From assembly GCA_942493245.1 (NCBI GenBank), contig OW818685.1:3452389-3516388 (forward strand): DNA of 64,000 bases, given 5' to 3'. This DNA comes from an uncultured Candidatus Sumerlaeota bacterium. GTDB lineage: Bacteria > Sumerlaeota > Sumerlaeia > UBA8349. The position numbers were made by a program, and so were the translations under genes. The notes beneath the pieces were generated by a model. The model saw nothing but the letters and a program-made list of their open reading frames with translations, had not been told where the DNA came from and made no database searches. Of the stretch, positions 5,976 through 54,312 are shown piece after piece. The first letter of the stretch is position 1; each line of letters starts with the position of its first letter.

Positions 5976-6243
5976 CGTGCCGCCCTCCTTCTATTGCCTG
6001 GACTTGCAGCCCTTCCAATTGCTTTCGGACCCGAATTGTACCGGTCCCGGAGGGTTTCAGACAAGTCAATAATCCGATATTGTGCGCCGGTATCCCCTCG
6101 CCACCCAATGGTTCTTAATCCTGTTGTTTCTTTGCTTGACATATCGAGTCCCCTATCTCAATATACCAGAATAGTATAGGTCGTTCCTATTGCCTCCGAA
6201 ATTTTTTCCAACCATCCGAAACAACGAGAAACGAATCATAACA

Positions 6244-9200
6244 ATGGACTCCCAACAAGACGGCATGGCGATAGCGCACGAACTGATCCGCGAAGCGAAA
6301 AAAACCCACGCCCTCTTTCTGGACCTGGGAAACCTCGGATTGACAGAACTCCCCCGTGAACTGGAAGAACTCGTCTGGCTGGAAGGGCTGAATCTGTCTG
6401 TGCTCTTTCGTGACATCGTTCATATGAAATTGGTGGTATCCATAAACGAGTATAGTCCAAATCGGATCAAGTGTCTACCATCATGGATCAGAAAACTCCA
6501 ATGCCTGCGTCACCTATTCCTAACAGATTTAGAGAAACTCAATAATATGGAGGAACTTCAAAGTCTTGAGGTGCTCAGTTTAACTGATTGCAATGATTTG
6601 ACCAATGTTGACAATCTGCAAGATCTAATCCGCCTTCAAGCACTGGACTTAAGCCGCTGTTCGTGTCTAACTAATGTAGACGGACTACAAAAACTAAATG
6701 GACTCAAAGTATTGGACCTATCTGTTTGTTCAAAATTAAAAAGTATCAATTGCTTGCAAAAAATGAACAAACTTCAAGTCCTAAACTTGGATGGTTGTTG
6801 GAGTTTGGAAAATATCTCTTGTCAGCCACAACCATCCCAACTTCGGTTACTAAATGCAAGAGGATGCTGCAACCTGCCCCATATTAACATTCTGCAGGGA
6901 TTGAACCACCTTCAGACGCTGGACTTAAGTGGGTGCGGGAACCTAGCCCAAGTCAATGTGCAGGGGCTGAGGGAACTTCAGTCACTATATTTAAGCGGGT
7001 GTGAGAATCTGACACAGATCAGAGGCCTGCAGGGGTTGAACCACCTTCAGACGCTGGACTTAGGTGGGTGCGAAAACATAGCCCGAGTCAACGTGCAAGG
7101 GCTTAGACAACTTCAGTCGCTGAGATTAAGAAGGTGTCTAAGCCTGAGCCTGGTCAATATACAAGGACTGAACAAACTCCGATCACTGGACCTATGTGCC
7201 TGTACTAGTTTGACCTCTCTCCCAGATTCTGTACTATATATGCCCCAATTAGAGGAACTTTTTCTTTGTGAAAGTAGTATCTATGACATTCCCCGCCCCT
7301 TGCTTGGTCGCGATTACTATGAAAATTGTCTACCGGGTATTCGGGCGCATTTCCACGATCTGGAACAGGGGGAAGAGCTGGACCGGGAGGTCAAACTGAT
7401 CCTGCTGGGGAATGGGTGGGTGGGGAAGACGTCGGTGTGCCGCCGGTTGATCGAGAACCGGTTTGACAAACATGAAAAATCCACCCACGGCGTGCGGTTC
7501 TGGCCGTGGCGTCTGAAGGAAAAGGAGGGCGAGGAACGCGCCATCACGGTCAATGTGTGGGATTTCGGCGGGCAGGACATTTATTACGGGACGCACGCGT
7601 TGTTTCACCAGGGCCGCGCCGTCTTTGTGATTGTGTGGGACGCGGAAACGGAAGGAACCGACTTCACACAAGATGAAGAGACCCAACTGACCCACCGGAA
7701 CTACCCGGTCCAGTACTGGCTCGACTACGTCCAGTCGGTCTCTCCCGGCAGCCCGGTCGTGATCGTTCAGAACAAATGCGCCTCGGATTTCGACTACCGC
7801 GCCGTCTCACTCACGATCAAAAATTCGAGTCAACACCCTCTGCAATGCCGGTTTTGCGCTGAGGAAGCGGACGATGCCCGAAACAACCGCCAACTCCTCG
7901 TGCATTACCTGGAAGAGGCGGTCGAGAAAGTCCTGGGGCACAAAGGCACCCAACGGATTGGTGTGGGTCGCTGGGGGGTGAAACAGGAACTGCGCCGGTT
8001 GTTGAACGAGGAAAAGACGCAAACCCTTTCGATCGAACGGTATCGTAAAATCTGCAGGGACCACCACCTCGACAAGGCGGGCGCCGACGCGCTGCTCGAG
8101 TTTCTGCACCACAGCGGAACCGTTTATCACCAGGCAAACCTGTTTGACAACGCGATCATCCTCGACCTGCGCTGGGTGTGCGACGCCATTTACACCCTGC
8201 TGGACCGGCACAAAGGGTGTTATCACGATATTCGGGAAAGAAACGGTCAATTCACCGGAAACCTCCTGAACCGGCTGGTCTGGCGCGAGGCGGGTTACCA
8301 ACTGTCCGAACAGGATCTGTTTATCGAAATGATGCAGTCGTGTAAAATCTGTTTCAAGTTAGGTGAAAATGATCGCAAGGAAGCCGTCTATCTGGCGCCG
8401 GATCTGACGCCCAACTACACAGACGTCGCGGGGGGATGTTATTGGGAGGAAAAAGGCGAAACATTCTACTGGCGCTATGATCACGGCTTTCTGGGTCCGA
8501 ACGTCCTCCGGCAGGCAATGATCGAAATCGGCAAAACGTATCGGCAATCGGCCTGTTACTGGCAGAACGGCTTTTACCTGCCGCTCAATGCCCTCCAGAG
8601 CCGCGCCCGCGTCACTGCGGAATACGGCCAGAACGGCAACCCGTCCCCCGGGCACATCACCCTGGCCATTCAGGGCGCAGGCAATCCCCAGAACAAGATG
8701 GAAATGCTGGGCATCCTGCGGAACGCCTTTGAAGAAGACCGTCGGTATCGGTGGCGCGAAAGTAATCGCAAAGATTGGGGGTTGGAACAAAAAAAGACCG
8801 GCATCCGGTATCAGGTTTCCCTGGATGGGGAGCACTGGGTGGATCTGGAAGCGTTGAAAACCATGCGCGACCTCGGGAACCCCCATGTGGCCTCTTTCGG
8901 GGACAACGACGCCCCACCCGTTCAACAGGAAGTCGCCGATTACCTCCATTACCTCGACCATCTGGACACCCCGTCCCGGTTCGACGGGGAGACACCCCGT
9001 CCACTCCCCCTCGCAAAAAACCAAGACACCTTGACTCCCATTACAGACGAAAAGGAAACGAAACCCATGAGCCCAGCCAATCCCCCGAAGGTTTTTATCA
9101 GTTACAGTCATGAAACCGCAGAACACGATGAACGTATCCGCAAATTGGCGGATCAGTTGTGTGAAAAGGATGGGATTGAGGTAGAACTCGACCAGTACCA

Positions 9201-9594
9201 TCAACGACCGTCCCAGGGATGGCCACGCTGGTGTGAGGAACAACTGGAACCGGAGAATTCAGACTTTGTCCTGGTCATCTGTACGCAAACCTACCTCGAT
9301 CGAATAAAAGGTAAAGTTCGAGCCGACGAAGGACACGGGGTCTATTGGGAAGGGTCTCTTCTCTACGATTACATCTATGATTCGAAAAGCAATACTCGTT
9401 TCATTCCGGTTCTGTTGAAAGGGGGAAAAGAAGACCATATTCCGCGCCCGATAAAAAGTTCCGGATGGTACAAGATTGAAAAGTTCGATCTTTCGGATCC
9501 GGGTTATAACGCGCTTTATGGGGTCCTGACCAATCAACCGGAGGTCAAAAAACCTCCCAGAGGCACGATTAAACGTCTTCCCGCGAAACCATGA
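6244..9594 (+). CDS. ROCO-family multidomain protein: cysteine-containing LRR - Roc GTPase - COR - C-terminal SEFIR/TIR-like domain
   Basis: ATG at 6244 (the ORF track opens at a TTG at 6190, in frame). About 14 LRRs of the LxxLxLSGCxNL type (nt about 6300-7250). Roc GTPase with G1 GNGWVGKTS (nt 7390 onward), G3 DFGGQ and G4 NKCASD. A COR-like region of about 350 aa follows. The C-terminal domain (nt 9085-9510) begins PKVFISYSHETAEHDERIRKLADQL and contains NTRFIPVLLKGGKEDHIP, which closely resembles SEFIR domains (compare Act1 RKVFITYSMD ... FRFIPVLFPNAKKEHVP). Confidence 0.85.
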   Translation: MDSQQDGMAIAHELIREAKKTHALFLDLGNLGLTELPRELEELVWLEGLNLSVLFRDIVHMKLVVSINEYSPNRIKCLPSWIRKLQCLRHLFLTDLEKLNNMEELQSLEVLSLTDCNDLTNVDNLQDLIRLQALDLSRCSCLTNVDGLQKLNGLKVLDLSVCSKLKSINCLQKMNKLQVLNLDGCWSLENISCQPQPSQLRLLNARGCCNLPHINILQGLNHLQTLDLSGCGNLAQVNVQGLRELQSLYLSGCENLTQIRGLQGLNHLQTLDLGGCENIARVNVQGLRQLQSLRLRRCLSLSLVNIQGLNKLRSLDLCACTSLTSLPDSVLYMPQLEELFLCESSIYDIPRPLLGRDYYENCLPGIRAHFHDLEQGEELDREVKLILLGNGWVGKTSVCRRLIENRFDKHEKSTHGVRFWPWRLKEKEGEERAITVNVWDFGGQDIYYGTHALFHQGRAVFVIVWDAETEGTDFTQDEETQLTHRNYPVQYWLDYVQSVSPGSPVVIVQNKCASDFDYRAVSLTIKNSSQHPLQCRFCAEEADDARNNRQLLVHYLEEAVEKVLGHKGTQRIGVGRWGVKQELRRLLNEEKTQTLSIERYRKICRDHHLDKAGADALLEFLHHSGTVYHQANLFDNAIILDLRWVCDAIYTLLDRHKGCYHDIRERNGQFTGNLLNRLVWREAGYQLSEQDLFIEMMQSCKICFKLGENDRKEAVYLAPDLTPNYTDVAGGCYWEEKGETFYWRYDHGFLGPNVLRQAMIEIGKTYRQSACYWQNGFYLPLNALQSRARVTAEYGQNGNPSPGHITLAIQGAGNPQNKMEMLGILRNAFEEDRRYRWRESNRKDWGLEQKKTGIRYQVSLDGEHWVDLEALKTMRDLGNPHVASFGDNDAPPVQQEVADYLHYLDHLDTPSRFDGETPRPLPLAKNQDTLTPITDEKETKPMSPANPPKVFISYSHETAEHDERIRKLADQLCEKDGIEVELDQYHQRPSQGWPRWCEEQLEPENSDFVLVICTQTYLDRIKGKVRADEGHGVYWEGSLLYDYIYDSKSNTRFIPVLLKGGKEDHIPRPIKSSGWYKIEKFDLSDPGYNALYGVLTNQPEVKKPPRGTIKRLPAKP
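6897..7130 (+). repeat. intragenic tandem duplication of a two-LRR unit (about 135 bp, two copies)
   Basis: GGATTGAACCACCTTCAGACGCTGGACTTAAGTGGGTGCGGGAACCTAGCCCAAGTCAATGTGCAGGGGCTGAGGGAACTTCAG... from about 6899 recurs at about 7034 with roughly 85% identity by eye. Confidence 0.6.
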
Positions 9595-22219: not shown

Positions 22220-23521
22220 TCACGTCAGTTTGGTGATGCCGGGCATGGCGACCGGCTCGACGGGCAACGGACCCAGTTCGTACTTCGCCGGCGCGAGGTT
22301 GAGTTTCGAGGCCTTCATGGCCCAGTCCCACTTGACCATGCTTCCCGTGTAGGCGCTCATGCGACCCAGAACGGCCACCATCGTGCTTTCGGCAACCTGC
22401 TCGCCTTCGTTCATCGGCTGGTTTTTGCGGATGCTCTCGATGAGATCCGTGTGCTCCTGCACGTAGGGATTCACGTTCTTACCCTCGTACTTGTAGGGAT
22501 TGGCGCCTTCGATGTAGCCGGAACTCCCGTCCAGATAGAGTACGCCCTTGGTTCCGACCACTCGTTCGGAAACGCGCGAGGCGGGACAATTTTTCATCTG
22601 GCGGCAGAAACTGGTGACCCGCACGTTGTTGGGATACTCGTACTGAATGCTGAAATGGTCGAAGATGTGGCCGCAGTTTTCGGCAACCCGCTGATGGCGT
22701 CCGCCCATGCCGAGGCACTGGACCGGATGCGCGCCGGTGGCCCAGTTCATGATGTCGAGGTTGTGGACATGCTGCTCGACGATGTGGTCGCCCGACAGCC
22801 AGGTGTAGTAGTTCCAGTTGCGGCACTGGTACTCCATGTCGGACCACTCGGGTTTCTTGTCGAGCGGGGTGTAGTAGTCATAGTCGCCCACCCAGTAGGC
22901 TTCGGCGCCCAGAACGGTCCCGATGGCGCCATCCTGCACCCGCTTCATGAACTCGATGTAGTGGTTCTGGTGGCGGCGCTGGGTTCCCGCTACGATGGAG
23001 AGATTCTTCTCCTTGGCCATACGGGCGCTCTCGATCACCGACTTGACGCCCGCCGGGTCCACGGCCACGGGTTTTTCCATGAAGACATGCTTGCCGGCCT
23101 CGACCGCCGCCTTCAGGTGCAGGGCGCGGAATCCGGGAGGCGCGGTCAAAATGACGATATCCACCCCACTGGCGATGACCTTCTGATACGCGTCGAACCC
23201 GACGAACGAGGTCTCGGGTGTGATCTTGTACTTTTCTTTCGCCTTGTCCTTCCACTCGTTCAGGGCGCCATCGAGTTGATCTTTGAACAGATCGCCCGCA
23301 GCCACCACTTCCAGACCCGGCGCCGCGCCCAGGCAATCCATCAGGGCGCCCCGACCGCGCTTGCCGGTTCCGATGATCCCCACCTTCAGGGTGTCCGACC
23401 CGGCGGCAAACACGCTGGCCACCCCCGGCAGGATGCTCGCCATTGAGGCAACCGCCGAGACCTTGACAAAGTTGCGGCGTGTGAGCGAGAGAATACGTTT
23501 CGACGAACGGTTGTGAATCAT
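22220..23521 (-). CDS. Gfo/Idh/MocA family oxidoreductase with Tat signal peptide
   Basis: Twin-arginine motif (LTRRNFVKVSAVAS) and a Rossmann GIIGTGKRG NAD-binding motif. Confidence 0.85.
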   Translation of the reverse strand: MIHNRSSKRILSLTRRNFVKVSAVASMASILPGVASVFAAGSDTLKVGIIGTGKRGRGALMDCLGAAPGLEVVAAGDLFKDQLDGALNEWKDKAKEKYKITPETSFVGFDAYQKVIASGVDIVILTAPPGFRALHLKAAVEAGKHVFMEKPVAVDPAGVKSVIESARMAKEKNLSIVAGTQRRHQNHYIEFMKRVQDGAIGTVLGAEAYWVGDYDYYTPLDKKPEWSDMEYQCRNWNYYTWLSGDHIVEQHVHNLDIMNWATGAHPVQCLGMGGRHQRVAENCGHIFDHFSIQYEYPNNVRVTSFCRQMKNCPASRVSERVVGTKGVLYLDGSSGYIEGANPYKYEGKNVNPYVQEHTDLIESIRKNQPMNEGEQVAESTMVAVLGRMSAYTGSMVKWDWAMKASKLNLAPAKYELGPLPVEPVAMPGITKLT

Positions 23522-23856
23522 GGGTTCTACTTTCCTTTCGTAGTGAACGATAACTAAACGGCTCTACGCCCACTCATTCGGGCGGTCTGCCGGGAACAAC
23601 CTTCTGGAAGAACCTGACACTTGAACCCCGCTCCTGCGCCCTCAACCGGACGGTCCCGGAGTTCTCACGTGATAAGTCTTCGATCCTCAAAATCCGCTTC
23701 ACTTGAAAACACACACTTCTTTAACCAGACAACGCCTCTTAAAGTGCGGCAACCCTTGCACGCAAGTCAAGCAAAAACACCACGGGTTCACGCTCTTCTT
23801 TCTGTCTTTCACCCATTTTTCCGCGTTTTCCCGAAACCACCCACTCTCGGAAAATC

Positions 23857-25863
23857 TCACCGGGATTTCAGAAAACCGGCATCCCTCAAAACCTCGAGCG
23901 CGTCGGGAAGCCCATCCGGCGCACGCGAAACACCCAGTTCATAGACCGGCGCGTGGTCGGCCAGCAGACAACTTTCACGGAAAGCCCGCGCCAATCCACC
24001 CAGCGCCTCGCGCAATGGCTCATAGAGTTGGCCATACCAGCGCGGGGACAGTTCCGCAAGCGCGGCAGTGGGTTTCAACAGCCTGAGAGTCGCCGGACCT
24101 TCCTGAGGTTTTACGACGAAGACCGCCGTGAGCGGAATGCCGACAGGCGCATCCGGTGAAACAGGGGTCTGGAAAAGAGCCTTGTTCCACCTCGAGGCCT
24201 CGAGCGGAACCCGCTCGCCCGCACACATGCTGAAACTGCCCGGATCGAATTGCGTCTTGATGACCGGAAAACCCCGCGAGGCGAGAAACGGCGCGCGCTT
24301 CGAGTCGAAAACCAGGATGTCGTCATCCAGTACGGTCGCTCCCCGGGAGTGCAGCGCGCACGCCAGCGCCGTTTTGCCGGCTCGCGGAGGTCCCAGAAAC
24401 GCAAACGCGTCCTCGTTTCCCATGGCCACACACACCGCGTGGAAAATTGAAAGTCCGCGTTGATACAGCAGGACGGGTAACACCATCTCCGATAACATGA
24501 TGGAGAAATCCATGTTTCCTTCCGGGAGCGGGGTGTCGTACAAAATCTCGCGCCCCGCCCGCACGACGAACAACCCCCGCCCCGGAAACGCCAGATGCGT
24601 CTCATCCTCCGAGACAACCCGGACAAACGTTTTCGTCTCGTGGGGAAATGCGTATTTCAAATCTGCTCGCCGGATTTCCACATCCACACCCGATATTGCG
24701 CACGTGGGTACCCCCGGAAAACACCACTCGCTGTGAATCTGCAATCCATAGCAGAAGTAGGAATACCCGGCCTCCGTTTCCCTGTCCCCAACAGCCCCTT
24801 CCGCCCCGCAACCATCCGGAGTTGCCGTGTCCCCAATGGCAAGGATTTCGGCCTCCTGTTTTTGTATCAACTCCCGGACGCGATCCCGAAAGACAGCCAG
24901 CCCCCCCATGTCCTCCGGCAATCCCTGAAAAAACGCCTCGACAGCCGATGCCCGGCCAGAGAAAAGCTGCGAAGTCACAAAGGACACAAACGCCGTGAGG
25001 AGACGAGGGAACTCCACCGGTTCCAGAAATGCCGGCGCATGCGCCACGGCTTCGCGCAGAAAACGCTGGCCCAGGTTGGCCGCCTCGCCGGCATAGGCGC
25101 GGAACGCGCCATTCAGGGTACACTGCGCATAGGCCAACCCGCGCGCCCGCACGGCTTCTTCGGGCACATCGGACCGCCCGTAGTAGGCGTCCAGCACGCG
25201 TTTGCAGTTCATCATGTACCCGATGTGCAGGGCCGCCGAGCGCTCTTCATACATCCGGTACACGATGAGAACGTCGCGCACCCACGCCATGCGCCGGTTC
25301 GCGTGCGCCAGCCGAATCCAGAAATCGAAATCTTCGGCCAGACGCAATTCCGGATCGAACCACGGCTCGATGCCCTCCAGGGCGGAGCGGCGCAGCATGA
25401 CCCCCGACGGCAGGAAGGAACACCCCATCAGGCAGTTGGTCAACGTCAGTTCGCGCCCGTTCTCCCACGGTCGTATCGTGGCAAACACCTCGCCGGACTC
25501 TCCGGCGAGGTGTCCCCCGCAACCCACCATATCCACATCCGGATGGCTTTCGAGAAACGCCACCTGCTTCGCCAATCGCAGAGGCAACGCCAGGTCGTCG
25601 TCATCGAGCAGGGCGAGATACTTCCCTCTCGCTTCCCTCATGCCGGTATTGCGCGCCTGGCTCCGCTCGCCATGCTCCAGATGCAACACCCGCACCCGCC
25701 GGTCCCGCAAACCGTCCAGGAGCGCCCGCGTCTCGTCCCCAGACCCATCGTTCGCCACGATCAGTTCGAAGTCCTCGAATGTCTGCAGGAGGATACTGCG
25801 GACCGCCTCGGCCAGAAGGCTCGAACGATTGAACGTGGGAATCACGACGCTGACAAGAGGCAT
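23857..25863 (-). CDS. family 2 glycosyltransferase fused to a C-terminal HPr-kinase-like P-loop domain
   Basis: N-terminus VSVVIPTFNRSSLLAEAVRSILLQTFEDFELIVANDGSGDET with an acidic DDDD motif (GT2). C-terminal region has FHAVCVAMGNEDAFAFLGPPRAGKTALACALHSRGATVLDDDILVFD, resembling the HprK C-terminal kinase fold. Confidence 0.7.
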   Translation of the reverse strand: MPLVSVVIPTFNRSSLLAEAVRSILLQTFEDFELIVANDGSGDETRALLDGLRDRRVRVLHLEHGERSQARNTGMREARGKYLALLDDDDLALPLRLAKQVAFLESHPDVDMVGCGGHLAGESGEVFATIRPWENGRELTLTNCLMGCSFLPSGVMLRRSALEGIEPWFDPELRLAEDFDFWIRLAHANRRMAWVRDVLIVYRMYEERSAALHIGYMMNCKRVLDAYYGRSDVPEEAVRARGLAYAQCTLNGAFRAYAGEAANLGQRFLREAVAHAPAFLEPVEFPRLLTAFVSFVTSQLFSGRASAVEAFFQGLPEDMGGLAVFRDRVRELIQKQEAEILAIGDTATPDGCGAEGAVGDRETEAGYSYFCYGLQIHSEWCFPGVPTCAISGVDVEIRRADLKYAFPHETKTFVRVVSEDETHLAFPGRGLFVVRAGREILYDTPLPEGNMDFSIMLSEMVLPVLLYQRGLSIFHAVCVAMGNEDAFAFLGPPRAGKTALACALHSRGATVLDDDILVFDSKRAPFLASRGFPVIKTQFDPGSFSMCAGERVPLEASRWNKALFQTPVSPDAPVGIPLTAVFVVKPQEGPATLRLLKPTAALAELSPRWYGQLYEPLREALGGLARAFRESCLLADHAPVYELGVSRAPDGLPDALEVLRDAGFLKSR

Positions 25864-25986
25864 GGCTTTTTCTCCGGAAAGTCCTGTCTGAGAAGTCGCT
25901 GACGCGGTAAGACCTCAGTTTGTATCAGACGGATACGTCCTATTCGACAGAGGGCAAAAGGCTAACGGAAAATCTTTTTCATCCCC

Positions 25987-27288
25987 TCAGGAAACATCCG
26001 ATTCCAGCGACCAGGCCGAATCCATGTGGATGTGGCCGGGAGAGAAGCGCGACTTTTCCGAAGCCGAGACGGGGACCACGGTGAACCGGATGCCTTCGAT
26101 ACGGTCCACCACCTTCCCCTGGTAATCGAACGGAACCACATCGAGCATGTAACTTCCCGCCAGAAAGGGGTTCCGGGTCTCGATCCGGATGCAGTAATCC
26201 CGCCCCGGCACTCCATCGAAGTAGGAAGTCTCCGTGTGTGTACTGAGCATCGTGGACAACCGCACTCCGTCGGAATTGCGCAAAATGACCACCAGACCAA
26301 ACCGCCGGTCGGCGTTGGAAACCCGGTAGGAAAGGCGCAACGAGAACGGCTCGTCCACCAGGAGCGTATCAGTCCGCACGCCCTGCCGGTTGAGAATTTC
26401 GATGCGGAACACCTCGAACTCGGCCGGGTAAGTCTGGTGCATCGCAGGGGCGATCTCGACGTTGGGCGCCTGGTTGGGCAGCGTGGTCAAGTATTCATCC
26501 ACCACGTCCGCCGCCTCGCCCGCCCGCACCAGCTGTCCCCCTTTCAGGAGCAACGCCTTGCTGCACAACCGGCGGATGGCCTGCATGTTGTGCGAGATGA
26601 ACAGGACTGTCCGGCCATGCCCCACCACGTCCTGGATTTTCCCGAGGCACTTGGCCTGAAACTGGGCATCCCCCACAGCCAGAACCTCGTCCACCATCAA
26701 AATTTCGGACTCCAGGTGCGCCGCCACGGCAAAGGCCAGCCGCACATACATCCCGCTCGAGAACCGCTTGACCGGGGTGTCCAGAAAACGCTCGACCTCT
26801 GAGAACGCGACAATCTCGTCGAATTTCCGGGCGATCTCCGACTTGCGCATCCCCAGAATCGCCCCATTGAGGTAGATGTTCTCACGTCCGGTCAACTCGG
26901 GGTGGAATCCCGTCCCCACTTCGAGCAAAGACCGGACCCGTCCCCGGATCACGGCGCGCCCCTCGGTGGGCCAGGTCACCCGCGACAGAACCTTCATCAG
27001 CGTGGATTTCCCCGCGCCGTTCTGCCCGATGATCCCGAGCACTTCCCCCTTGCGGACCTCGAAACTTACGTCCCGCAATGCCCACAGAATCTCATCGTCA
27101 CCCGTCTTTTTCTCCGAAGCCACGCCCGGCTCTCCAACGGCCGGTGGCCGCACCCACTCCTTGAGACGGCGGCCCGCCTGACGCGGAAGATCCATCACCA
27201 TTTCGCGAAACGAACGCGTCAAATCCACATGGTGGCCCAGGTGGTATTGCTTGCTCAGGTGTTCGGCGGTGATGGCCAGGTCGCTCAT
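25987..27288 (-). CDS. polysaccharide export ABC transporter ATP-binding protein (Wzt/TagH-like) with a C-terminal extra domain
   Basis: Walker A GQNGAGKST, signature FSSGMYVRLAFA, Walker B ILMVDEVLAVGD; about 170 additional C-terminal residues, as in Wzt proteins with a glycan-binding domain. Confidence 0.85.
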   Translation of the reverse strand: MSDLAITAEHLSKQYHLGHHVDLTRSFREMVMDLPRQAGRRLKEWVRPPAVGEPGVASEKKTGDDEILWALRDVSFEVRKGEVLGIIGQNGAGKSTLMKVLSRVTWPTEGRAVIRGRVRSLLEVGTGFHPELTGRENIYLNGAILGMRKSEIARKFDEIVAFSEVERFLDTPVKRFSSGMYVRLAFAVAAHLESEILMVDEVLAVGDAQFQAKCLGKIQDVVGHGRTVLFISHNMQAIRRLCSKALLLKGGQLVRAGEAADVVDEYLTTLPNQAPNVEIAPAMHQTYPAEFEVFRIEILNRQGVRTDTLLVDEPFSLRLSYRVSNADRRFGLVVILRNSDGVRLSTMLSTHTETSYFDGVPGRDYCIRIETRNPFLAGSYMLDVVPFDYQGKVVDRIEGIRFTVVPVSASEKSRFSPGHIHMDSAWSLESDVS

Positions 27289-27306
27289 GTGTCAGGGGTT
27301 TTCCGG

Positions 27307-28179
27307 TCAGATAATATCGGCAAACGTGCGTTCCATTTTCTTGAAATAAAAAAGGCCGGTCACCAGAATCGCCACCGCAACGGGAGTTCCGACGGCCAGA
27401 AGAAACCAGGGCGGGTCGGCCGTGTGTCCCGCCGCGCGAATCGTCTCCGAGAACAGACACCAGCGGAATCCCTCCACCACCCCCGCCATCGGGTTGAGCG
27501 CGTACACGTAGCGAAGCCAGCCATACTCGCGCAACGCGCTGAACGGGAAAATCACCGTGCAGTACATCCAGATCTGCATGATGAAGGGAAGCAGATACCG
27601 GATGTCCCGGTAGCGCACCTGCAGGGCGGAAAAGAGGAACCCCGTTCCCAGCGCCACGATAAAAGCGACGGCCATCAGGACCGGCAGAAACAACGCCATG
27701 ACCCCCACGGGCGTTCCAAAATACCCGAGCAGCGGCCCCAGCAGGACGAACGCGATCGCGAAGTCGAGCAGGCTCGCCAGGCAGGGCACCGTCGGAATAA
27801 TCACGCGCGGGAAATACACTTTGGTCAAAAAAGAGGTATTCGAGAGCAGACTGCCGCTGGACATGGAGAGCGAGTTGGCAAAATACGTCCACGGCAACAG
27901 GTTGACGTAATAAAAAACAGGACCGGGCAGTCCCGACGTGGAGAGGTTGGCCACCTTCTTGAACACAAAGGAAAACACCACCATCTGCAGGAAAGGAACC
28001 AGCACCGCCCACGCCACCCCCAGCAGCGTCTGGCGGTACTTCACCTTCAGGTCGCGCCACGTCAGGAAGAAAAGCAACTCGCCGTACTGCCACAGTTCTT
28101 TCCAGTCCACGCTCAACAGCCCACGCGGCGGCTCGACAATCAGGACCGGTTCTTCGATTTCCCGCGGCAACGATGGCAC
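27307..28179 (-). CDS. ABC-2 type polysaccharide export permease (Wzm/TagG-like)
   Basis: Six predicted transmembrane segments, an ABC-2 permease pattern; 18-bp gap to the downstream ATPase gene. Confidence 0.8.
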   Translation of the reverse strand: MPSLPREIEEPVLIVEPPRGLLSVDWKELWQYGELLFFLTWRDLKVKYRQTLLGVAWAVLVPFLQMVVFSFVFKKVANLSTSGLPGPVFYYVNLLPWTYFANSLSMSSGSLLSNTSFLTKVYFPRVIIPTVPCLASLLDFAIAFVLLGPLLGYFGTPVGVMALFLPVLMAVAFIVALGTGFLFSALQVRYRDIRYLLPFIMQIWMYCTVIFPFSALREYGWLRYVYALNPMAGVVEGFRWCLFSETIRAAGHTADPPWFLLAVGTPVAVAILVTGLFYFKKMERTFADII

Positions 28180-28387: not shown

Positions 28388-30387
28388 CTGGTGGCGCAGC
28401 GAAGCCGCAACCCATAAAACCGCGAAAGGCGCGAAAAACGCGAAATTCGGCTTTCCCGTTTTTCCGTACTACATCTCGCAGAACCAACGCAAACCACGAT
28501 GATCTCATGAACAGAAAGAATGGAATGTGTAAACCCCTTAACGCAAAGACGCCAAGACGCAAGGACGCAGAGGGTTCCGGATGGCGAGGACGGCGCGATT
28601 CAAAACTCGAACCGAAAATAGGGATGGAATGTGCGGACGACAAAAACTGAAAATCCATGAACCTAAAAACCGCAGTTGACTCTTGCTCTCGTTCTGCAAG
28701 TGTAGCAAACTGAGTGCATGAACGAGAAAAATCTCTTCCCAACCCCTCACCCATTGGGTGACTCCAATGCGCCCGAGATCGAATCTCTGGTGGTGGACAC
28801 TTTTGGCGGCCGGGTCCACGTGGAGTGGGCGCCCCAGGCGGCCGTGACGCCTCTGGGGCAATTGCCGTTCTTCATCGAGTTCCTCAAGACGGCCCATCTT
28901 TTTGATGCCTGGGTTCAGGATTGCCCGCTGGAGTACCACAGCCCCAATGCCCCGGCCAAGCGCGACATTCTGGGGACGACTCTGCTGTGTCTGCTGGCGG
29001 GTCACACGCGCTACGCTCACATCGCGGCGATTCGGGCCGATGGGGTGAATCCGGAATTGCTCGGCATGTCGAAGGTGGCCAGCGAGGACTCGGTGCGCCG
29101 GGCGTTTCAGGCCGTGGATGGGGAGGAGTGCGCGCTCTGGCAAACCCATCACTTGCGGCGCTGTTACGAGGCTTTGTTGTGCGAGCCGTGGATTCTGGAT
29201 CTCGACACGACCGTCAAGCCGCTCTACGGCCGTCAGGAAGGGGCCGTGAAGGGCTACAACCCGCAGAAACCGGGCCGTCCCTCGCACACGTACCACACCT
29301 ACTTTCTGGCCAACCTGCGCCTGGTGCTCGACGTCGAGGTGCAGTCGGGCAACCGGACGGCGGCGAAGTACACGAGCCCCTCGTTCTTCTCCTTTCTCGA
29401 CACCCTGTCCCCCGAACAGCGGCCGGTCTTCGTGCGCGGCGACTGTGCCTTCGGCAACGACGCGGTCATGCGCGAGTGCGAGAAACGGGGACAGCCTTAC
29501 TTGTTCAAGTTGCGCCAGACTCAGAAAGTACGGGGGCTGATCGAGAAACTCTTTGCCCGCGAGGTGTGGGAGGACGCGGGCCAGGGCTGGGAGGGCGTGG
29601 AGTCGAAGTTACGCCTGAGCGGCTGGGAGCGCGAGCGCAAGGCCGTCGTCCTGCGTCGGCGCCTGAAAGGCGATCTGCTTTTGGCCAACCGCCCACAACC
29701 AGGACAGTTGGAACTGGCTTTTGTCGAGACACTCGAGACGGTGGGCCCGTACGAGTACGCCGTACTGGTGACGGACCTCGCGGGCGAAATCCTCACGTTG
29801 GCGCAGCACTACCGGGACCGGGCGGACTGCGAGAACGTCTTCGATGAGTTGAAGAACCAGTGGGGCTGGGGCGGGTTCACGAGTCGGGACCAGAAACGCT
29901 GCCAGATCATGGCGCGCCACACGGCTCTGGTCTACAACTGGTGGTCGCTGTTCGCGCGCCTGGCCCTGCCCGACAAACACCACGAGGCGCAGACCAGCCG
30001 CCCGCTTCTTCTGCACGCCGTGGGCAAGCAGACGCAACACGCCGGTCAGACCACGCTGACCCTGACGAGCCTGCATGCCGAGTCGGCCTCCATCCGCAAA
30101 GTTTTGCGCGGTTTGACGGGCTTTTTCCAGCACCTTCGCAAGGCTGCGGAGCAGTTGGATTGGACTGAGCGCTGGCGGCTGATTCTGAGTCGCGCCTTCG
30201 TCGTCTTTCTGAAAGGAAGACTCCTCGGCGTACCGGGAAAACCCGCCCTCGGATGCACTTGAGCGACAAACACCGGCGCCCAAGGCCCTTGGGCAGGGTT
30301 CAACTGCTGTTTTTAGGATGAATCTTTGCATCTCTGCACCTTTGCGACTTTGCGTTAAAATTGGTTGCGGCTTTGCTGCGCCAGGAA
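28388..30387 (+). mobile_element. insertion sequence, IS1380/IS4-like, with long imperfect terminal inverted repeats
   Basis: Single DDE transposase ORF flanked by CCTGGTGGCGCAGCGAAGCCGCAACC... (28388 onward) and its reverse complement ...GGTTGCGGCTTTGCTGCGCCAGG (ending about 30387). A second IR-like copy TTAACGCAAAGACGC sits at about 28538, and the inner segment CCTAAAAACCGCAGTTGAC (28662) matches the reverse complement of 30300-30320. The left end is about 200 bp longer than the right. Confidence 0.75.
28718..30262 (+). CDS. DDE transposase (IS1380/IS4-like)
   Basis: 514 aa; ..KGYNPQKPGRPSHTYHTYF.., ..VFVRGDCAFGNDAVM.., and C-terminal ..YRDRADCENVFDELKNQWGWGGF.. (Y-R-E-K signature region). 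Confidence 0.8.
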   Translation: MNEKNLFPTPHPLGDSNAPEIESLVVDTFGGRVHVEWAPQAAVTPLGQLPFFIEFLKTAHLFDAWVQDCPLEYHSPNAPAKRDILGTTLLCLLAGHTRYAHIAAIRADGVNPELLGMSKVASEDSVRRAFQAVDGEECALWQTHHLRRCYEALLCEPWILDLDTTVKPLYGRQEGAVKGYNPQKPGRPSHTYHTYFLANLRLVLDVEVQSGNRTAAKYTSPSFFSFLDTLSPEQRPVFVRGDCAFGNDAVMRECEKRGQPYLFKLRQTQKVRGLIEKLFAREVWEDAGQGWEGVESKLRLSGWERERKAVVLRRRLKGDLLLANRPQPGQLELAFVETLETVGPYEYAVLVTDLAGEILTLAQHYRDRADCENVFDELKNQWGWGGFTSRDQKRCQIMARHTALVYNWWSLFARLALPDKHHEAQTSRPLLLHAVGKQTQHAGQTTLTLTSLHAESASIRKVLRGLTGFFQHLRKAAEQLDWTERWRLILSRAFVVFLKGRLLGVPGKPALGCT

Positions 30388-49443: not shown

Positions 49444-50508
49444 TTAGGCATGGAGTTCCGGCGCATGTTCGCGCGTCCATTCCTCGATATCGGGCGCGCA
49501 GTACTGAACCCGCACTTTTTTGAACTCGCGCCGGGAGTGCAACAGGGCATAGTCGTCCAGACCGGTCGCGGCCCGAATGGCCTCGACCGCCTGGAGCGTT
49601 TCGCGGTCGTCGCGCCCGTGGATCATGGCATAGTGCGAATAGGGCCAGTCCGGAGGATACGTGGGACGCTGGTAACAGTGGGAAACCTGAGACACGGCGG
49701 CCATGCTCTTGCCAGCCGTTTCCGCTTGCTCGGGCGGCACATTCCACGCGCTCATGATGTTGGCCGTATATCCCGCCTGACGATGGCGCAGAATCGCGGC
49801 GAAGCGGCGCATGGCGCCTCGATCGAGGAACTGCCGCGCGAGGGTCAGCAACTGCTCGCAAGTCAAGCCGTGGGCTTGAGCCAGCACGGAGAACGGCTCG
49901 ATCTCCAGCGGCAGATCGGTCTGAAGCGCGCGAACGGCAGCCTGCTCGATGGCGCTCAGAGGGGGGACCTCCCGGGAAGGCAAATGGGGAAGAGAACCGG
50001 AATCCCCCTCCGATTCCAACCGTCCCGTTTCGAGGGAATCGGCTTCAGGCTCCCCCATCGAGAACCGCACACCGATCTTGAAGAGCCGCACCGCCGGGAG
50101 AAACAGCCAGTTGCGCGCGTCGGCCAGCCGGGCGAGCGCCCGGGCGTGGGAACGCAGGTCGGCCTCAGGCGGAACGGTGAGCGTGCTCCAGAGATTGAAA
50201 CGGTGCTCGCGTTCGTAGTTGTGGCTCACACCGGGATGGCTGTTGATGCGCAGGGCAGCCGACTCCAGCGCCTCGGGCAACAACTCGAACGCCAGAAGGG
50301 TACTTTGATACCCCAAAGCCGCTGAATCGAAAATCGCGCTGAGCTGGCGGATAAGACCCGATTCCTTTAATGCGCGAAGGCGCGTCAGGAGGGTCTCTTC
50401 CGGTAACTGCAACCGCTCTCCCAGAACGCGGAAGGGACGCTCGTTCAACGGGAAGGCCGTTTGAACGGCATCCAGAATGCGGCGGTCGAGATCGTCGAGG
50501 GACAGCAT
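49444..50508 (-). CDS. siroheme decarboxylase-like protein (fused AhbA/AhbB or NirD/NirL type, tandem Lrp/AsnC-like modules)
   Basis: Two tandem AsnC-like winged-helix plus ligand-domain modules (MLSLDDLDRRILDAVQTAF... and ..LSAIEQAAVRALQTDLP..), adjacent to hemL and a heme-type radical SAM gene. Confidence 0.65.
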   Translation of the reverse strand: MLSLDDLDRRILDAVQTAFPLNERPFRVLGERLQLPEETLLTRLRALKESGLIRQLSAIFDSAALGYQSTLLAFELLPEALESAALRINSHPGVSHNYEREHRFNLWSTLTVPPEADLRSHARALARLADARNWLFLPAVRLFKIGVRFSMGEPEADSLETGRLESEGDSGSLPHLPSREVPPLSAIEQAAVRALQTDLPLEIEPFSVLAQAHGLTCEQLLTLARQFLDRGAMRRFAAILRHRQAGYTANIMSAWNVPPEQAETAGKSMAAVSQVSHCYQRPTYPPDWPYSHYAMIHGRDDRETLQAVEAIRAATGLDDYALLHSRREFKKVRVQYCAPDIEEWTREHAPELHA

Positions 50509-50532
50509 GAACAGCCTCTTCCTGATTTCCTC

Positions 50533-51822
50533 TTACAGAACGGCCTTCGCCGCCAGCAAGGCCTCGCGCTGCGCGGCCAGCGTCGCGTCCACATCGGCGT
50601 CCGTGTGAGCCGCCGAAACAAAGGCCGCCTCGAACTGCGCCGGAGCCAGATAGATCCCCCGATCCAGCATCGCGTGGAAGTACGCCGCATAGGCCTTTGT
50701 ATTGCATCCGGCGGCCGTTTTCCACGAGGTGACACGCTCCCGGGTGAAAAAGAGACACGACATGGACCCCACCCGCGTGGTGAAAAGGTCCAGTCCCAGT
50801 TCTTTCAGATTCCGATCCGTCCCGGCGGCCAAGCGCGCCGAACGGACTTCAAGGGCGTCGTAGAACCCCGGCTCGCGCAACAACTCAAGGGTTTCAATCC
50901 CGGCGGTCATGGCCAGCGGGTTGCCCGACAGGGTGCCCGCCTGATAGACCGGTCCCTCGGGCGCCACTTTCGCCATAATGTCCGCCCGCCCGCCATACGC
51001 CCCCACCGGCAAGCCGCCGCCGATGATCTTGCCCAGGGTGGTCAGATCGGGCATGACGCCATAGCGCTCCTGTGCGCCCCCCAGCGCCACCCGGAACCCG
51101 GTCATCACCTCATCGAAAATCACAATAATCCCCTCGCGGGTACAGATTGCGCGCAAACCTTCGAGAAAACCCGGCTCGGGCGGCACCACGCCCATGTTGC
51201 CCGCAACCGGTTCGACAATAACCGCCGCGATCTCACCCGAGTTGGACCGGGTAAGCGCCTCGACCGATTCGAGGTCGTTGTACGACGCCAGGAGCGTGTC
51301 GGCGGCAGCGCCGGGTGTCACGCCGGGACTGTTGGGCACCCCAAGCGTCGCCGCGCCGGAACCGGCGGCGATCAGGAAACTGTCCGAGTGGCCGTGATAA
51401 CACCCCTCGAACTTGACAATCTTGTTGCGTCCCGTAAACCCACGCGCCACGCGCACGGCGCTAAGAGTCGCCTCGGTACCGGAATTGACCATGCGGACTT
51501 TTTCGATGGAAGGCACGATTTCGATAATCAGGCGCGCCAGTTGGTTCTCGAGCACCGTGGGCGCGCCAAAACTGGCGCCACGCGCACACGCCTTCTGAAG
51601 CGCTTCGACCACGCGCGGATGGGTATGACCGACGATCATGGGACCCCACGACCCGACGTAGTCAATGTATTCCCGCCCTTCGACATCGCGGATGCGGGCG
51701 CCCGACGCGCTTTCCATGACTACGGGCGTCCCGCCCACCGCGGCAAACGCGCGCACAGGCGAATTGACCCCACCGGGGATCAGCGTGCGGGCTTCTTCCA
51801 TGATTTGTTGACTGGTTGGCAT
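50533..51822 (-). CDS. hemL: glutamate-1-semialdehyde 2,1-aminomutase
   Basis: [10 protein letters not shown], a PLP-dependent class III aminotransferase pattern, full length (429 aa). Confidence 0.9.
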
Positions 51823-51828
51823 ATCGAA

Positions 51829-52977
51829 TCACAACTCCTTTGAATGGCCCGATTGGGCCTTCGGTTCATAGACACAGAAGGGTTCTTCGGCCAGATAATC
51901 TCCCGTGGCCGCATACGCGCGGGCGCGGCATCCTCCGCACACGCGCCGGTATTCGCAGTACCCGCAACGACCGTGGTAGCCGTCGAGGTTGCGCATGGCC
52001 AGAAAAACGTCGGACGTCTCCCAGATCCGCTTGAAATCGTAGTTCGCCACCCGCAGATCCCCGCATTCCTCCTCCAGAAAACCGCAAATCTGAAGTTTCC
52101 CGACGTGCGAAATGAACGCAAAGGACTGCCCCCCCATGCACCCCTTCGACATCGCGTCGAGGCCATGCGTCTGCGGCGTGACTGAACGCCCCTTCTCGCG
52201 CTCGCGCTGACGCAGAATGCGGTAGTAGTGCGGGGCACAGGTGGGTTTGAAGAGAATCGACAGCGACTCGCGTTTCTCGTAGATCCAGTTGAGCGTCCGC
52301 TCGTACTCTTCGGGCGTCAGGCTCTGTTCAGCCATCTCCCGTCCCCGGCCCGTGGGCACCAGCAGGAACGGGTGGTAGGCCACCGCGCCGATCTCGATGG
52401 CCAGATCCAGAATCTTTTCGAGTTCGTGGAGGTTGTGCTTCGTGACGGTCGTATTGATCTGAAATTCGAGACCCGCCTCGCGGGCATTGCGGGCCGCGAG
52501 CATCACACTGTCGAACGCCCCCTCGACACGTCGGAACTGATCGTGGCTCTCAGCCGTGGCTCCGTCGAGACTCAGGCTGATACGCTGAATACCGCAGGCC
52601 TTCATCCGCTCGGCGGCCTCGACCGTCACCAACTGTCCGCACGGCGCCATCACCATGCGAAGCCCGAGGTCCGAACCGTGGCGCGCGATGTTCCAGATGT
52701 CCGCGCGCAACATCGGCTCCCCACCGGTGAGGATGATAATCGGTTTGCAGAACGACGCGATGTTGTCGAGCGTCGCGCAGATTTCTTCTTCGTTCAACTC
52801 ATTGCAGTAAGGCCCAAACTGCGCCGCCGCCCGGCAATGCACGCAGTTCAGGTTGCACGAGCGCGTCACCTCCCACGCGATGAGACGCGGCAGATACACG
52901 GGAGAACCGGGAGAGTGCGGAGACGGCATGGGAGAAGGTTCGGATGGATGTGGCATGGAAAGGTGACTGTACTCCAT
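51829..52977 (-). CDS. radical SAM/SPASM protein of the heme biosynthesis type (AhbC/AhbD/NirJ-like)
   Basis: CNLNCVHC radical SAM cluster motif and a Cys-rich C-terminal SPASM-like region (..CGYCEYRRVCGGCRARA..). Confidence 0.7.
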   Translation of the reverse strand: MEYSHLSMPHPSEPSPMPSPHSPGSPVYLPRLIAWEVTRSCNLNCVHCRAAAQFGPYCNELNEEEICATLDNIASFCKPIIILTGGEPMLRADIWNIARHGSDLGLRMVMAPCGQLVTVEAAERMKACGIQRISLSLDGATAESHDQFRRVEGAFDSVMLAARNAREAGLEFQINTTVTKHNLHELEKILDLAIEIGAVAYHPFLLVPTGRGREMAEQSLTPEEYERTLNWIYEKRESLSILFKPTCAPHYYRILRQREREKGRSVTPQTHGLDAMSKGCMGGQSFAFISHVGKLQICGFLEEECGDLRVANYDFKRIWETSDVFLAMRNLDGYHGRCGYCEYRRVCGGCRARAYAATGDYLAEEPFCVYEPKAQSGHSKEL

Positions 52978-53068
52978 TCAGGCTTCAAAATCGGTCTCGT
53001 AAAATATGGCGATTCCCCGCTTATCCGAACGAGAGAATACCTCCAACCGGATCAGAATTTCCAAGTCC

Positions 53069-54061
53069 TCACGCCAACCACCGCGCCACATCCTTGGCCG
53101 AGTAGGTCAGGATGATATCCGCGCCCGCGCGCCGGAAACCGGTCAGCGTTTCGAGCACGATGCGCTTTTCGTCAATCCATCCCCGAGCGGCCGCCGCCTT
53201 CACCATCGCATATTCACCGCTGACGTTGTAGGCCGCCACGGGCCGTCCGAACCGCTCGCGCACGCGCCAGATAATGTCCATGTAGGCCAAGGCGGGCTTC
53301 ACCATCACAATGTCGGCGCCCTCCTCGACATCGAGCCGCACTTCCTCGAGCGCCTCGAGCGCGTTGGCCGGGTCCATCTGATACGACCGGCGGTCGCCAA
53401 ACTGTGGCGCGGATCCCGCCGCCTCGCGGAAGGGGCCATAATACCCCGACGCGTACTTGGCCGCATACGCCATGATCGGCACGTTTTCGAAACCAGCCTC
53501 GTCCAGCCCTTCCCGAATGGCCGCCACGCGCCCGTCCATCATGTCGCTCGGCGCGACCATTGTGGCGCCCGACCGCGCGTGGCTCACCGCCGCCTGGGTC
53601 AACAATTCGAGCGCCTCGTCGTTCTGCACCACCCCCTGGCAGATCGGACCGCAATGGCCGTGGTCGGTGTACTCGCACAGGCACACATCGGTGATGATCT
53701 CGAGGCGGCTGTCCACCGCGCCCGTATTGACCTGGCTCGCCAGCGCCGCACAGGCCCGCTGCACAATCCCGTTTTCGGCATAGGCGCCCGAACCCACAGC
53801 GTCCTTGCTTTCCGGAATACCGAAAAGCAACACGCCCGGAATCCCCAGATCGCGCACCTCTTTACATTCCTCGACCAGCTGATCCACCGACAAATGGTAA
53901 CACCCCGGCAGCGAGGAGATTTCCTGACGGACATTCGTCCCCGGCACCACAAAGAGCGGATAGATCAAGTCATCCACGGAAAGCCGGGTCTCACGCACCA
54001 TGCGGCGCAGACTCTCGGTAGCGCGCAAGCGCCGCATACGCAGTTTCGGGAAAATGGACAT
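53069..54061 (-). CDS. hemB: porphobilinogen synthase (delta-aminolevulinic acid dehydratase)
   Basis: [13 protein letters not shown]..., active-site region ..[14 protein letters not shown].. and ..[14 protein letters not shown]... Confidence 0.9.
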
Positions 54062-54312
54062 CGAGTTTTCGCCTCTCTTTCTCTCTGAACCCAGACTTTT
54101 CTCTGGAACATTTTCTTCAGCAGTCCCACCGGCGTCCAGAGAATTCTCGCTTCTCGTGCCGCCCGCAGTCTCATCCCCCCGGCGTCCCCACCGGCTTTCG
54201 CGGTTCTGTACCGCCGGCGTCCCCGCCGGCGAAGGAGCTCCAGAACGAACCGGCTCGAACCCGGGTGGACAAAATAATCGGGACATTCCCCCCGAGGTTC
54301 AGAAAATTCCCC

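Follow-up and report, generated by a model that had tools for sequence, protein, structure and literature searches.

The window analysed here, a stretch of 64,000 nucleotides from an uncultured Candidatus Sumerlaeota bacterium (contig OW818685.1, positions 3,452,389 to 3,516,388), carries a three-gene operon that encodes the permease Wzm, the ATPase Wzt with a C-terminal Wzt_C domain, and a fusion protein in which a glycosyltransferase family 2 (GT2) domain is joined to a kinase-like P-loop domain of the HprK/PEPCK fold. Our preferred reading, which we hold tentatively, is that the fusion enzyme makes a phosphorylated glycan end that is read by Wzt_C before export through Wzm/Wzt; the trio would then be a self-contained "glycosylate, phosphorylate, export" module. 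The three open reading frames (ORFs) are uninterrupted and separated by 18 bp (wzm–wzt) and 123 bp (wzt–fusion gene), and permease and cognate ATPase are encoded together, as Wzm/Wzt systems require. An earlier interpretation made from the letters of the window without database searches (the sequence-only reading) had proposed a GT2 domain fused to an HPr-kinase-like P-loop domain, co-located with a Wzm/Wzt exporter whose ATPase has an extra C-terminal domain. Both proposals hold: Pfam recognizes the GT2 domain, homologues of the P-loop domain match HprK models, and the exporter matches ABC2_membrane, ABC_tran and Wzt_C. The same reading placed the fusion gene directly upstream of wzt, whereas the order of transcription is wzm, wzt and then the fusion gene, and it began the kinase-like region at about residue 380, which we correct to about residue 365.

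Residues 5–129 of the fusion protein match Glycos_transf_2 (PF00535) with an E-value of 8.5e-31, and GT2-like models extend to about residue 204. The features of GT2 membership are present, namely the profile match, the GT-A fold and a DxD-type motif: the protein contains LLDDDD at residues 85–90, which we assign as the DxD site, and AEDFDF at residues 176–181. In Foldseek searches the GT-A part resembles AvpGT, WrtF, SpsA, TarP/TarS and K4CP (E approximately 1e-14 to 1e-15). With SpsA, TarP/TarS and WrtF, soluble family-2 GT-A enzymes that decorate polymers, it has in common the fold and the motifs at both positions, whereas the window protein has, in addition, a kinase-fold domain fused C-terminally via a flexible linker. 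The full-length AlphaFold model (predicted local distance difference test, pLDDT, 90.7; predicted template modelling score, pTM, 0.64) consists of four parts: the GT-A domain (residues 1 to about 205), a compact all-helical domain (about 210–344), a linker with pLDDT below 50 (346–363) and the kinase-fold unit (365–668). The longest helix spans residues 317–344 and is followed by the disordered linker; because it comprises only 28 residues, the fusion has no coiled-coil ruler. No hydrophobic or membrane segment was found in the protein, and we propose that the enzyme is cytoplasmic and soluble. A related protein of 390 residues that lacks a kinase (P0005) aligns to the N-terminal 49% of the fusion with 41% identity, and its gene sits within an ordinary multi-GT2 polysaccharide cluster.

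Direct profile evidence for the C-terminal domain is weak. Pfam gives no match, no curated HprK threshold is reached (Hpr_kinase_C, TIGR00679, TIGR04352), and the single model that scores, TIGR04352 "HprK-related kinase A", does so with an E-value of 0.002–0.006 and 15.8–17.4 bits against a cut-off of 200. A phmmer search against PDB sequences returned nothing beyond a chance P-loop match, and no more than four relatives came from a word-indexed protein search. When residues 365–668 were searched exhaustively with phmmer against 1.84 billion representatives, the result was 5910 proteins at E ≤ 1e-3, 727 of them at E ≤ 1e-10, nearly all about 300 residues long and aligned end to end. In a family alignment of 41 members (the window domain and 40 of the best phmmer matches), TIGR04352 matches all 41, Pfam Hpr_kinase_C and TIGR04355 match 37 each, and the HPr(Ser) kinase/phosphatase model matches 33. 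The HprK profile search suggested by the sequence-only reading thus gives no Pfam match and a sub-threshold TIGR04352 score for the domain itself but succeeds with its homologues, and because of this transitive link the HprK-like assignment is solid despite the weak direct score.

Kinase-fold similarity, likewise expected by the sequence-only reading, is borne out by structure prediction: the domain has a PEPCK-like fold together with the Walker A lysine, the upstream histidine and the downstream Asp-Asp pair. The invariant or near-invariant residues of the family are kept (R469, H475, G496 and K497 within GPPRAGKT, and D514 and D515 within DDD at 513–515), and the whole 300-residue unit, including its N-terminal beta subdomain, is conserved in the same way as in free-standing family members. 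Compared with HprK/P and ATP-dependent PEPCK, the window domain lies below every curated HprK threshold and by sequence is closest to the HprK-related family found with peptides that are made by the ribosome and modified after translation (RiPPs); nothing ties it to HPr or to carbon catabolite control. The kinases of lasso and linear RiPP systems (PadeK/ThcoK, PsmK with PsmN, and LppK) are homologous over the same 300-residue unit and have the same P-loop, His and Asp motifs.

A neighbour-joining tree places the window kinase, with 87% bootstrap support, in a clade that we call Kb, which also comprises the fused domains of two metagenomic loci (L015 and L016, described below), the free-standing domain of a third (L019), and P0121, P0123 and P0126. 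Kb proteins are marked by the signatures PPxxGKT, (L/V)DDD(I/L) and W(Y/F)GxLY, and all three occur in only 6 of the 152 proteins scanned. Members of Kb are fused to GT2 in the window, L015 and L016 and lie next to GT2 genes in L019. A second type of kinase in these loci, Ka, forms a separate clade, and the lasso/LPP-like kinase of locus L014 groups elsewhere in the tree than Kb. Unlike the lasso and linear RiPP kinases, therefore, the window protein belongs to a clade that is GT2-fused or GT2-adjacent in every lineage with visible context.

When the best 150 kinase-domain matches were examined for fusions of GT2 and HprK-like domains, three more were found, two in the order GT2-kinase (P0147 and P0156) and one in the order kinase-GT2 (P0248). 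The metagenomic cluster loci concerned are L015:431–9088, L016:876–9309 (contig PWRX01000170.1 of GCA_003563415.1; also L017 and L018) and L019:276–4598. In L015 and L016–L018 the genes run from wzm and wzt (with Wzt_C) through PqqD, Transglut_core3, a small ORF and a free-standing HprK-like gene to the GT2-HprK fusion, a second GT2 gene and NTP_transf_5; Transglut_core3 is the B2 peptidase family of lasso peptide pathways. In L019 a small ORF comes first, then an HprK-GT2 fusion, then a free-standing HprK-like protein and finally a GT2 gene. The domain order Ka-Ga-Kb-Gb is kept throughout while the fusion point moves, from [Ka][Ga-Kb][Gb] in L015 and L016 to [Ka-Ga][Kb][Gb] in L019. GT2 and HprK-like domains have thus been fused independently in both orders, an argument for their acting in one pathway.

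The small ORFs of these loci read MEKSTYTKPVLVSHGKVKNVTL/MPPPVSPIGP in L015, (M)KKPYSKPLLRSQGKVKNVSI/QRVAISPIMP in L016 and MSEKISKKAYAKPQLLAHGPVKNVTL/HRPPPSPHQ in L019, and have in common the leader pattern Y-x-K-P-x-L-x3-G-x-V-K-N-V-[T/S]-x. The slash marks a boundary between leader and core that we set by analogy with the penultimate threonine of lasso leaders; on that boundary, the putative cores would be 9–10 residues long and rich in proline, each with exactly one serine. Discrete RiPP recognition elements (RREs) of lasso pathways bind the leader motif [Y/W]xxPx[L/V/I/F/A] (PMC13381572), and a penultimate threonine is conserved in lasso leaders (PMC10368454); the small-ORF leader fits both. 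No lasso cyclase was seen in the L015, L016–L018 or L019 contigs, and the gene content of these loci points to a candidate new type of linear RiPP-like cluster. HPr-kinase homologues phosphorylate a serine of lasso precursors, and a nucleoside triphosphate (NTP) transferase adds hexoses to that phosphate (PMC8498205); such peptide kinases also act on precursors of linear polyphosphorylated peptides (LPPs) (PMC13381572), and GT2 enzymes glycosylate RiPPs (PMC11912497). The clusters described here look like a further variant, in which a B2 peptidase is combined with two kinases, two GT2s and an exporter of the Wzm/Wzt type. As in the lasso and linear RiPP systems, a PqqD RRE, NTP_transf_5 and a [Y]xxPxL leader accompany the kinase in these relatives of the cassette, but LPP clusters use an SpI peptidase whereas the window-related clusters use a B2 peptidase and have no cyclase, and the exporter that partners the window kinase is Wzm/Wzt with Wzt_C and not an MsbA-like pump or one of the lasso D type.

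The window cassette is orthologous to part of these clusters. In tblastn searches of L015 and L016 proteins against the window, Wzm is 49–51% identical, Wzt is 52% identical over the aligned length including Wzt_C (for L016, over the full length), and the fusion is 32% identical over its full length, while the second GT2 matches only the GT2 domain of the fusion. The window GT2 scores 178–207 bits against Ga and 146–170 bits against Gb; because its GT2 is closer to Ga and its kinase falls in the Kb clade, the cassette amounts to a stand-alone version of the Ga-Kb-plus-exporter part of that larger cluster. The PqqD, B2, peptide, second kinase and NTP_transf_5 sequences of L015 and L016 gave nothing significant in tblastn against the 64 kb, a six-frame scan of the same stretch found no leader motif, and the intergenic regions of the cassette, examined for possible precursors, hold no small ORF that is conserved or fits the motif. 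The Sumerlaeota-type contigs likewise lack an RRE, a B2 peptidase, an NTP transferase, a kinase of the Ka type and any ORF with the leader motif.

Wzt matches the Aquifex aeolicus Wzt in the PDB (6amx/8dku) over residues 66–270 with an E-value of 3e-61, and its C-terminal domain scores 38.7 bits for Wzt_C against a gathering score of 30.4 (E 1.2e-9). The proposal that this domain is a glycan-binding module is supported by the Pfam assignment but finds no sequence match among solved carbohydrate-binding modules (CBMs). With the Wzt_C alignment as query, a word-indexed search scored nothing, and a metagenome scan returned only two Sumerlaeota-type contigs. For comparison we used L009:4706–13781, a classical cluster in a Desulfobacterota genome in which wzm and a wzt with Wzt_C are accompanied by three genes for methyltransferases, two for GT2s and one that is WaaL-like, as a representative of methyl-cap-type termination. 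The window Wzt and that of L015 are 65% identical in the ATPase domain and 37% identical, without gaps, in the C-terminal domain (score 290); for L016 the values are 63% and 36%, again gapless (score 283), and for L009 they are 59% and 24% (score 28). Because C-terminal identity is 36–37% with the GT2-HprK clusters and 24% with L009 while ATPase identity is 59–65% throughout, the type of binding domain follows the GT2-Kb enzyme and not the phylogeny of the ATPase, and a Wzm/Wzt pair with the same Wzt_C type adjoins Ga-Kb in all three lineages with visible context. This co-variation is as expected if Wzt_C reads the structure made by the enzyme, and it lends indirect support to the suggestion, already made in the sequence-only reading, that the domain may recognize the product of the fusion.

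Full-length coverage of the fusion in a collection of 5.8 billion sequences is limited to the window's own protein and three others at 76–77% identity, and a genome scan with the full fusion protein gave one true relative (77%, in a Candidatus Sumerlaeota metagenome-assembled genome) in addition to GT2-only matches. The trio alone recurs in at least four Sumerlaeota-type contigs, with identities of 76–82% and differing upstream neighbours, and conservation is equal in the two halves of the enzyme, at 80% for the GT2 and 78% for the kinase. In L002 and L004 the trio follows a Hydrolase_3 gene (a weak match), a lipid A acyltransferase gene and two genes without a Pfam match; by position only, we take the Hydrolase_3 gene there to be kdsC-like and the two Pfam-less genes to be lptC/lptA-like. 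In L001 a fucosidase gene lies upstream of the trio. A further contig (L005:121–2106) has the fusion gene split into a 249-residue GT2 gene and a 295-residue kinase-like gene (P0116, 65% identical). P0116 was considered as a free-standing form of the kinase and rejected, as it is a split copy of the fusion and the neighbouring genes are fragmented too; the split probably reflects an artefact of assembly or frameshift, or else a pseudogene.

In the mechanism that we tentatively favour, the GT-A domain of the soluble cytoplasmic fusion would add a sugar from a nucleotide sugar to an acceptor, and the tethered HprK/PEPCK-fold (Kb) domain would phosphorylate the product using ATP. The phosphorylated glycan end would be the epitope for the matching Wzt_C domain, whose recognition would license passage through Wzm/Wzt. 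From an evolutionary viewpoint, the trio is the GT2(a)-kinase(b)-plus-exporter sub-module of the larger RiPP-like clusters. The likeliest acceptor is an envelope glycan, lipid-linked or of another kind, that is made elsewhere; a peptide encoded elsewhere is less likely. We favour the glycan because no peptide-specific gene lies within at least 24 kb of the cassette in either direction. Several observations weigh against this mechanism. The wider kinase family, in the contexts sampled, consists of peptide serine kinases of lasso and linear RiPP clusters, which makes a peptide substrate the natural default: one relative adjoins a lasso-cyclase-like Asn synthase (L007), another lies in a lasso cluster on a plasmid (H4, found by plasmid tblastn, with one further match uninformative), and a third belongs to an NTP_transf_5-PqqD-kinase-ABC cassette (L014). 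A near-invariant serine that follows the catalytic histidine in the family is a valine in the window protein. The Wzt_C assignment comes from one Pfam match, and neither single-sequence nor profile searches of this domain against PDB sequences gave a significant match to solved CBMs or other structures; the co-variation was seen in three lineages and one comparator. A coiled-coil molecular ruler, a feature of terminators (PMC11231755), was not found in the full-length fusion model. Among the annotated proteins of the window there is no initiating transferase, ligase, further glycosyltransferase or polymerase module, or sugar-nucleotide gene, and the sole glycosyltransferase domain is that of the fusion.

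Part of this evidence would be accommodated by a peptide-directed pathway, in which the HprK-like domain phosphorylates a serine of a ribosomal peptide or protein encoded elsewhere, the GT2 builds the sugar, Wzm/Wzt exports the phosphoglycopeptide and Wzt_C reads its glycan. The relatives of the trio in L015, L016–L018 and L019 adjoin leader-motif ORFs with single-serine cores, plus PqqD and Transglut_core3, their leader fits the motif bound by lasso RREs (PMC13381572), and both the phosphorylation and hexosylation of lasso and LPP precursors and the glycosylation of RiPPs by GT2 enzymes (PMC11912497) have been described. Such a pathway is nevertheless rather unlikely for the window, where, unlike in lasso and linear RiPP systems, neither the 64 kb nor the Sumerlaeota-type contigs contain its RRE, peptidase, NTP transferase, Ka-type kinase or precursor, and where the intergenic regions of the cassette offer no conserved small ORF. 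The window kinase is moreover of the Kb and not the Ka type, and it is Ka that the tree groups on one side with the L014-type RiPP kinases. We know of no Wzm/Wzt transporter shown to move peptides, and our literature search found no paper mentioning both HPr kinase and Wzt. The P-loop domain might instead be a nucleotide-sensing or regulatory module, or a phosphorylase, that gates the GT2 or the transporter rather than a product kinase. HprK/P is itself a metabolite-regulated, bifunctional kinase/phosphorylase, and the flexible linker, the very low direct profile scores to characterized kinases and the replacement of the near-invariant serine by valine would suit such a role; the invariant Arg, His and GK and the near-invariant Asp-Asp are all kept, however, as is the whole 300-residue unit with its N-terminal beta subdomain, and the characterized relatives in RiPP clusters are true kinases, so we consider a regulatory role quite improbable. 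Very improbable, in our judgement, is that the trio is a decaying remnant of a larger RiPP-like cluster with no defined product any more. Six L015/L016 genes are missing from the window, an insertion element is found upstream of wzm at a distance of about 210 bp, and L005 has a split fusion gene, but all three ORFs are intact, the trio is kept at 76–92% protein identity in several independent metagenome contigs without the insertion element, and both halves of the enzyme are equally conserved with intact catalytic motifs.

The phosphorylated-glycan mechanism has also to be compared with the O-antigen systems. Known ABC-dependent O-antigen systems export only chains capped at the non-reducing end, the cap being read by the CBM of Wzt, and terminators, kinases included, can be fused to GT2 modules (PMC11231755; PMC3482155). 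The systems of E. coli O9a and K. pneumoniae O3 (WbdD), K. pneumoniae O12 (WbbB) and O7 (ORF6) use the same Wzm/Wzt with a Wzt_C module; the modifying enzyme is likewise encoded beside the transporter, the binding domain varies with the modifying enzyme, and in O7 ORF6 (methyltransferase-kinase-GT2) a kinase-type module is fused to a GT2, as in the window. In a strict O-antigen or capsule interpretation, the GT2 would be the chain-elongating polymerase and the kinase the chain-length terminator, on the model of WbdD in E. coli O9a or ORF6 in K. pneumoniae O7. The combination of Wzm/Wzt with Wzt_C, the existence of GT2-fused kinase terminators (PMC11231755), the methyltransferase genes that occupy the same place after wzt in the classical L009 cluster, and the KdsC-like (weak), lipid A acyltransferase and position-only lptC/lptA-like genes that precede the cassette in three Sumerlaeota-type contigs all agree with it. 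The cassette differs from these systems, however, in having neither a coiled-coil ruler nor a methyltransferase and only one glycosyltransferase domain, and no initiating transferase, WaaL or sugar-nucleotide gene was found among the annotated proteins of the 64 kb. Its lipopolysaccharide-gene neighbourhood is inconstant, as the fucosidase gene in L001 illustrates, and its orthologous trios lie in RiPP-like rather than O-antigen clusters. The HprK/PEPCK P-loop fold of the window kinase is unlike that of both kinase terminators described in PMC11231755. We therefore regard the strict interpretation as improbable, and the O-antigen or capsule pathway proposed in the sequence-only reading finds no support in the window. 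Nor did that reading anticipate a kinase family made up mainly of peptide kinases from lasso and linear RiPP clusters, or that the nearest full relatives of the trio would lie in RiPP-like clusters with a leader peptide, an RRE and a B2 peptidase. Its cap-and-export logic is only partly supported: the domain identifications are right, but the ruler and a second glycosyltransferase domain are lacking. The cassette agrees in outline with cap-gated ABC export, with an HprK/PEPCK-fold kinase fused to a GT2, and departs from the known cases in its missing ruler and in the missing initiation, polymerase and ligase genes at the same locus.

Table 1. Features of the cassette and of other parts of the window (positions within the 64,000-nucleotide stretch).
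Feature	Position	Strand	Description
wzm	27307–28179	-	290 aa, ABC-2 type permease, first gene of the operon; Pfam ABC2_membrane E 3.4e-13
wzt	25987–27288	-	433 aa, ABC ATPase with C-terminal extension; Pfam ABC_tran E 5.7e-21
Wzt_C domain of Wzt	26050–26415	-	residues 292–413, putative ligand-reading module; Pfam PF14524; checked by translation
Fusion gene	23857–25863 (stop codon included)	-	668 aa; GT2, helical domain, linker and HprK/PEPCK-fold kinase-like domain
GT2 (GT-A fold) catalytic domain	25249–25863	-	residues 1 to ~205; Pfam Glycos_transf_2
All-helical domain	24832–25236	-	residues ~210–344, followed by disordered linker 346–363; full-length AlphaFold model
HprK/PEPCK-fold P-loop kinase-like domain	23860–24771	-	residues 365–668, Kb clade
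Walker A/P-loop GPPRAGKT	24370–24393	-	residues 491–498; checked by translation
GFO/IDH/MocA oxidoreductase gene	22220–23521	-	follows the cassette
Fusion/oxidoreductase intergenic region	23522–23856	-	conserved sequence blocks
IS1380-family insertion sequence	28392–30383		35-nt imperfect terminal inverted repeats
IS1380 transposase	28718–30262	+	NCBIfam E 1.7e-43
LRR-Roc-COR-A/COR-B protein gene	6190–9594	+	1134 aa, C-terminal SEFIR/TIR domain
Tetrapyrrole gene run	49444–54286	-	four genes

Immediately downstream of the fusion gene, the GFO/IDH/MocA oxidoreductase gene follows the cassette wherever a related contig extends far enough (L001 and L002). Its product has an apparent twin-arginine-type signal, judging from the N-terminal sequence, and weak NCBIfam similarity to glycoside 3-dehydrogenases (E 4e-8); these hints suggest a periplasmic sugar oxidoreductase, with an unproven link to the cassette. 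The gene carries its own conserved promoter-like and palindromic element: the preceding intergenic region holds the blocks CTTGACTTG, CACTTT, GGCGTT and the palindrome-containing TTATCACGTG, which are invariant in four Sumerlaeota-type contigs and are probably the promoter and operator of the oxidoreductase gene. No RNA family was found in the window by Rfam, this intergenic region included. On the other side of the cassette, the IS1380 element lies between wzm and an upstream gene that we take, by position only, to be lptA-like; it is missing at the same site in L002 and L004.

Elsewhere in the 64 kb, the annotated proteins have housekeeping functions or no relation to the cassette. Among them, the LRR-Roc-COR protein is encoded in a patch of low GC content (0.50–0.54) and matches the PADLOC bSEFIR model (E 6e-46), which makes it a candidate ROCO-type anti-phage defence protein. 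A run of four genes encodes a siroheme-decarboxylase-like NirDL/AsnC-type protein, a class-III aminotransferase (HemL-like), a radical SAM protein and 5-aminolaevulinic acid dehydratase (ALAD, HemB), and suggests the alternative (Ahb) haem pathway.

What makes the cassette most interesting is its evolutionary link with RiPP-like clusters in which lasso-type leader peptides are paired with Wzm/Wzt. We speculate, with considerable reserve, that a RiPP pathway is served here by a type of exporter, Wzm/Wzt equipped with a carbohydrate-binding domain, that has hitherto been known for lipid-linked polysaccharides alone; in this pathway a short proline-rich core with a lasso-type leader would be phosphorylated on its single serine, without a cyclase, and extended through alternating Ka, Ga, Kb, Gb and NTP transferase steps into a phosphoglycan that is read before export. 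The Sumerlaeota trio would then be the minimal tailoring-and-export core of a new RiPP class, its precursor being encoded elsewhere, or would have been co-opted for an envelope glycan. If the fusion is a glycan kinase, the HprK/PEPCK fold would be new for chain-end marking in ABC-dependent glycan export, and the set of signatures for predicting capped glycans from genomes would become wider. If it is a peptide kinase, it would join two unconnected fields, the Wzm/Wzt glycan exporters and the lasso/LPP-type RiPP machinery, and would indicate that uncultured phyla hold exported phosphoglycopeptides of a new class. In both cases, the Kb clade, which is rare, and the Wzt_C type matched to it constitute a concrete and testable enzyme-reader pair.

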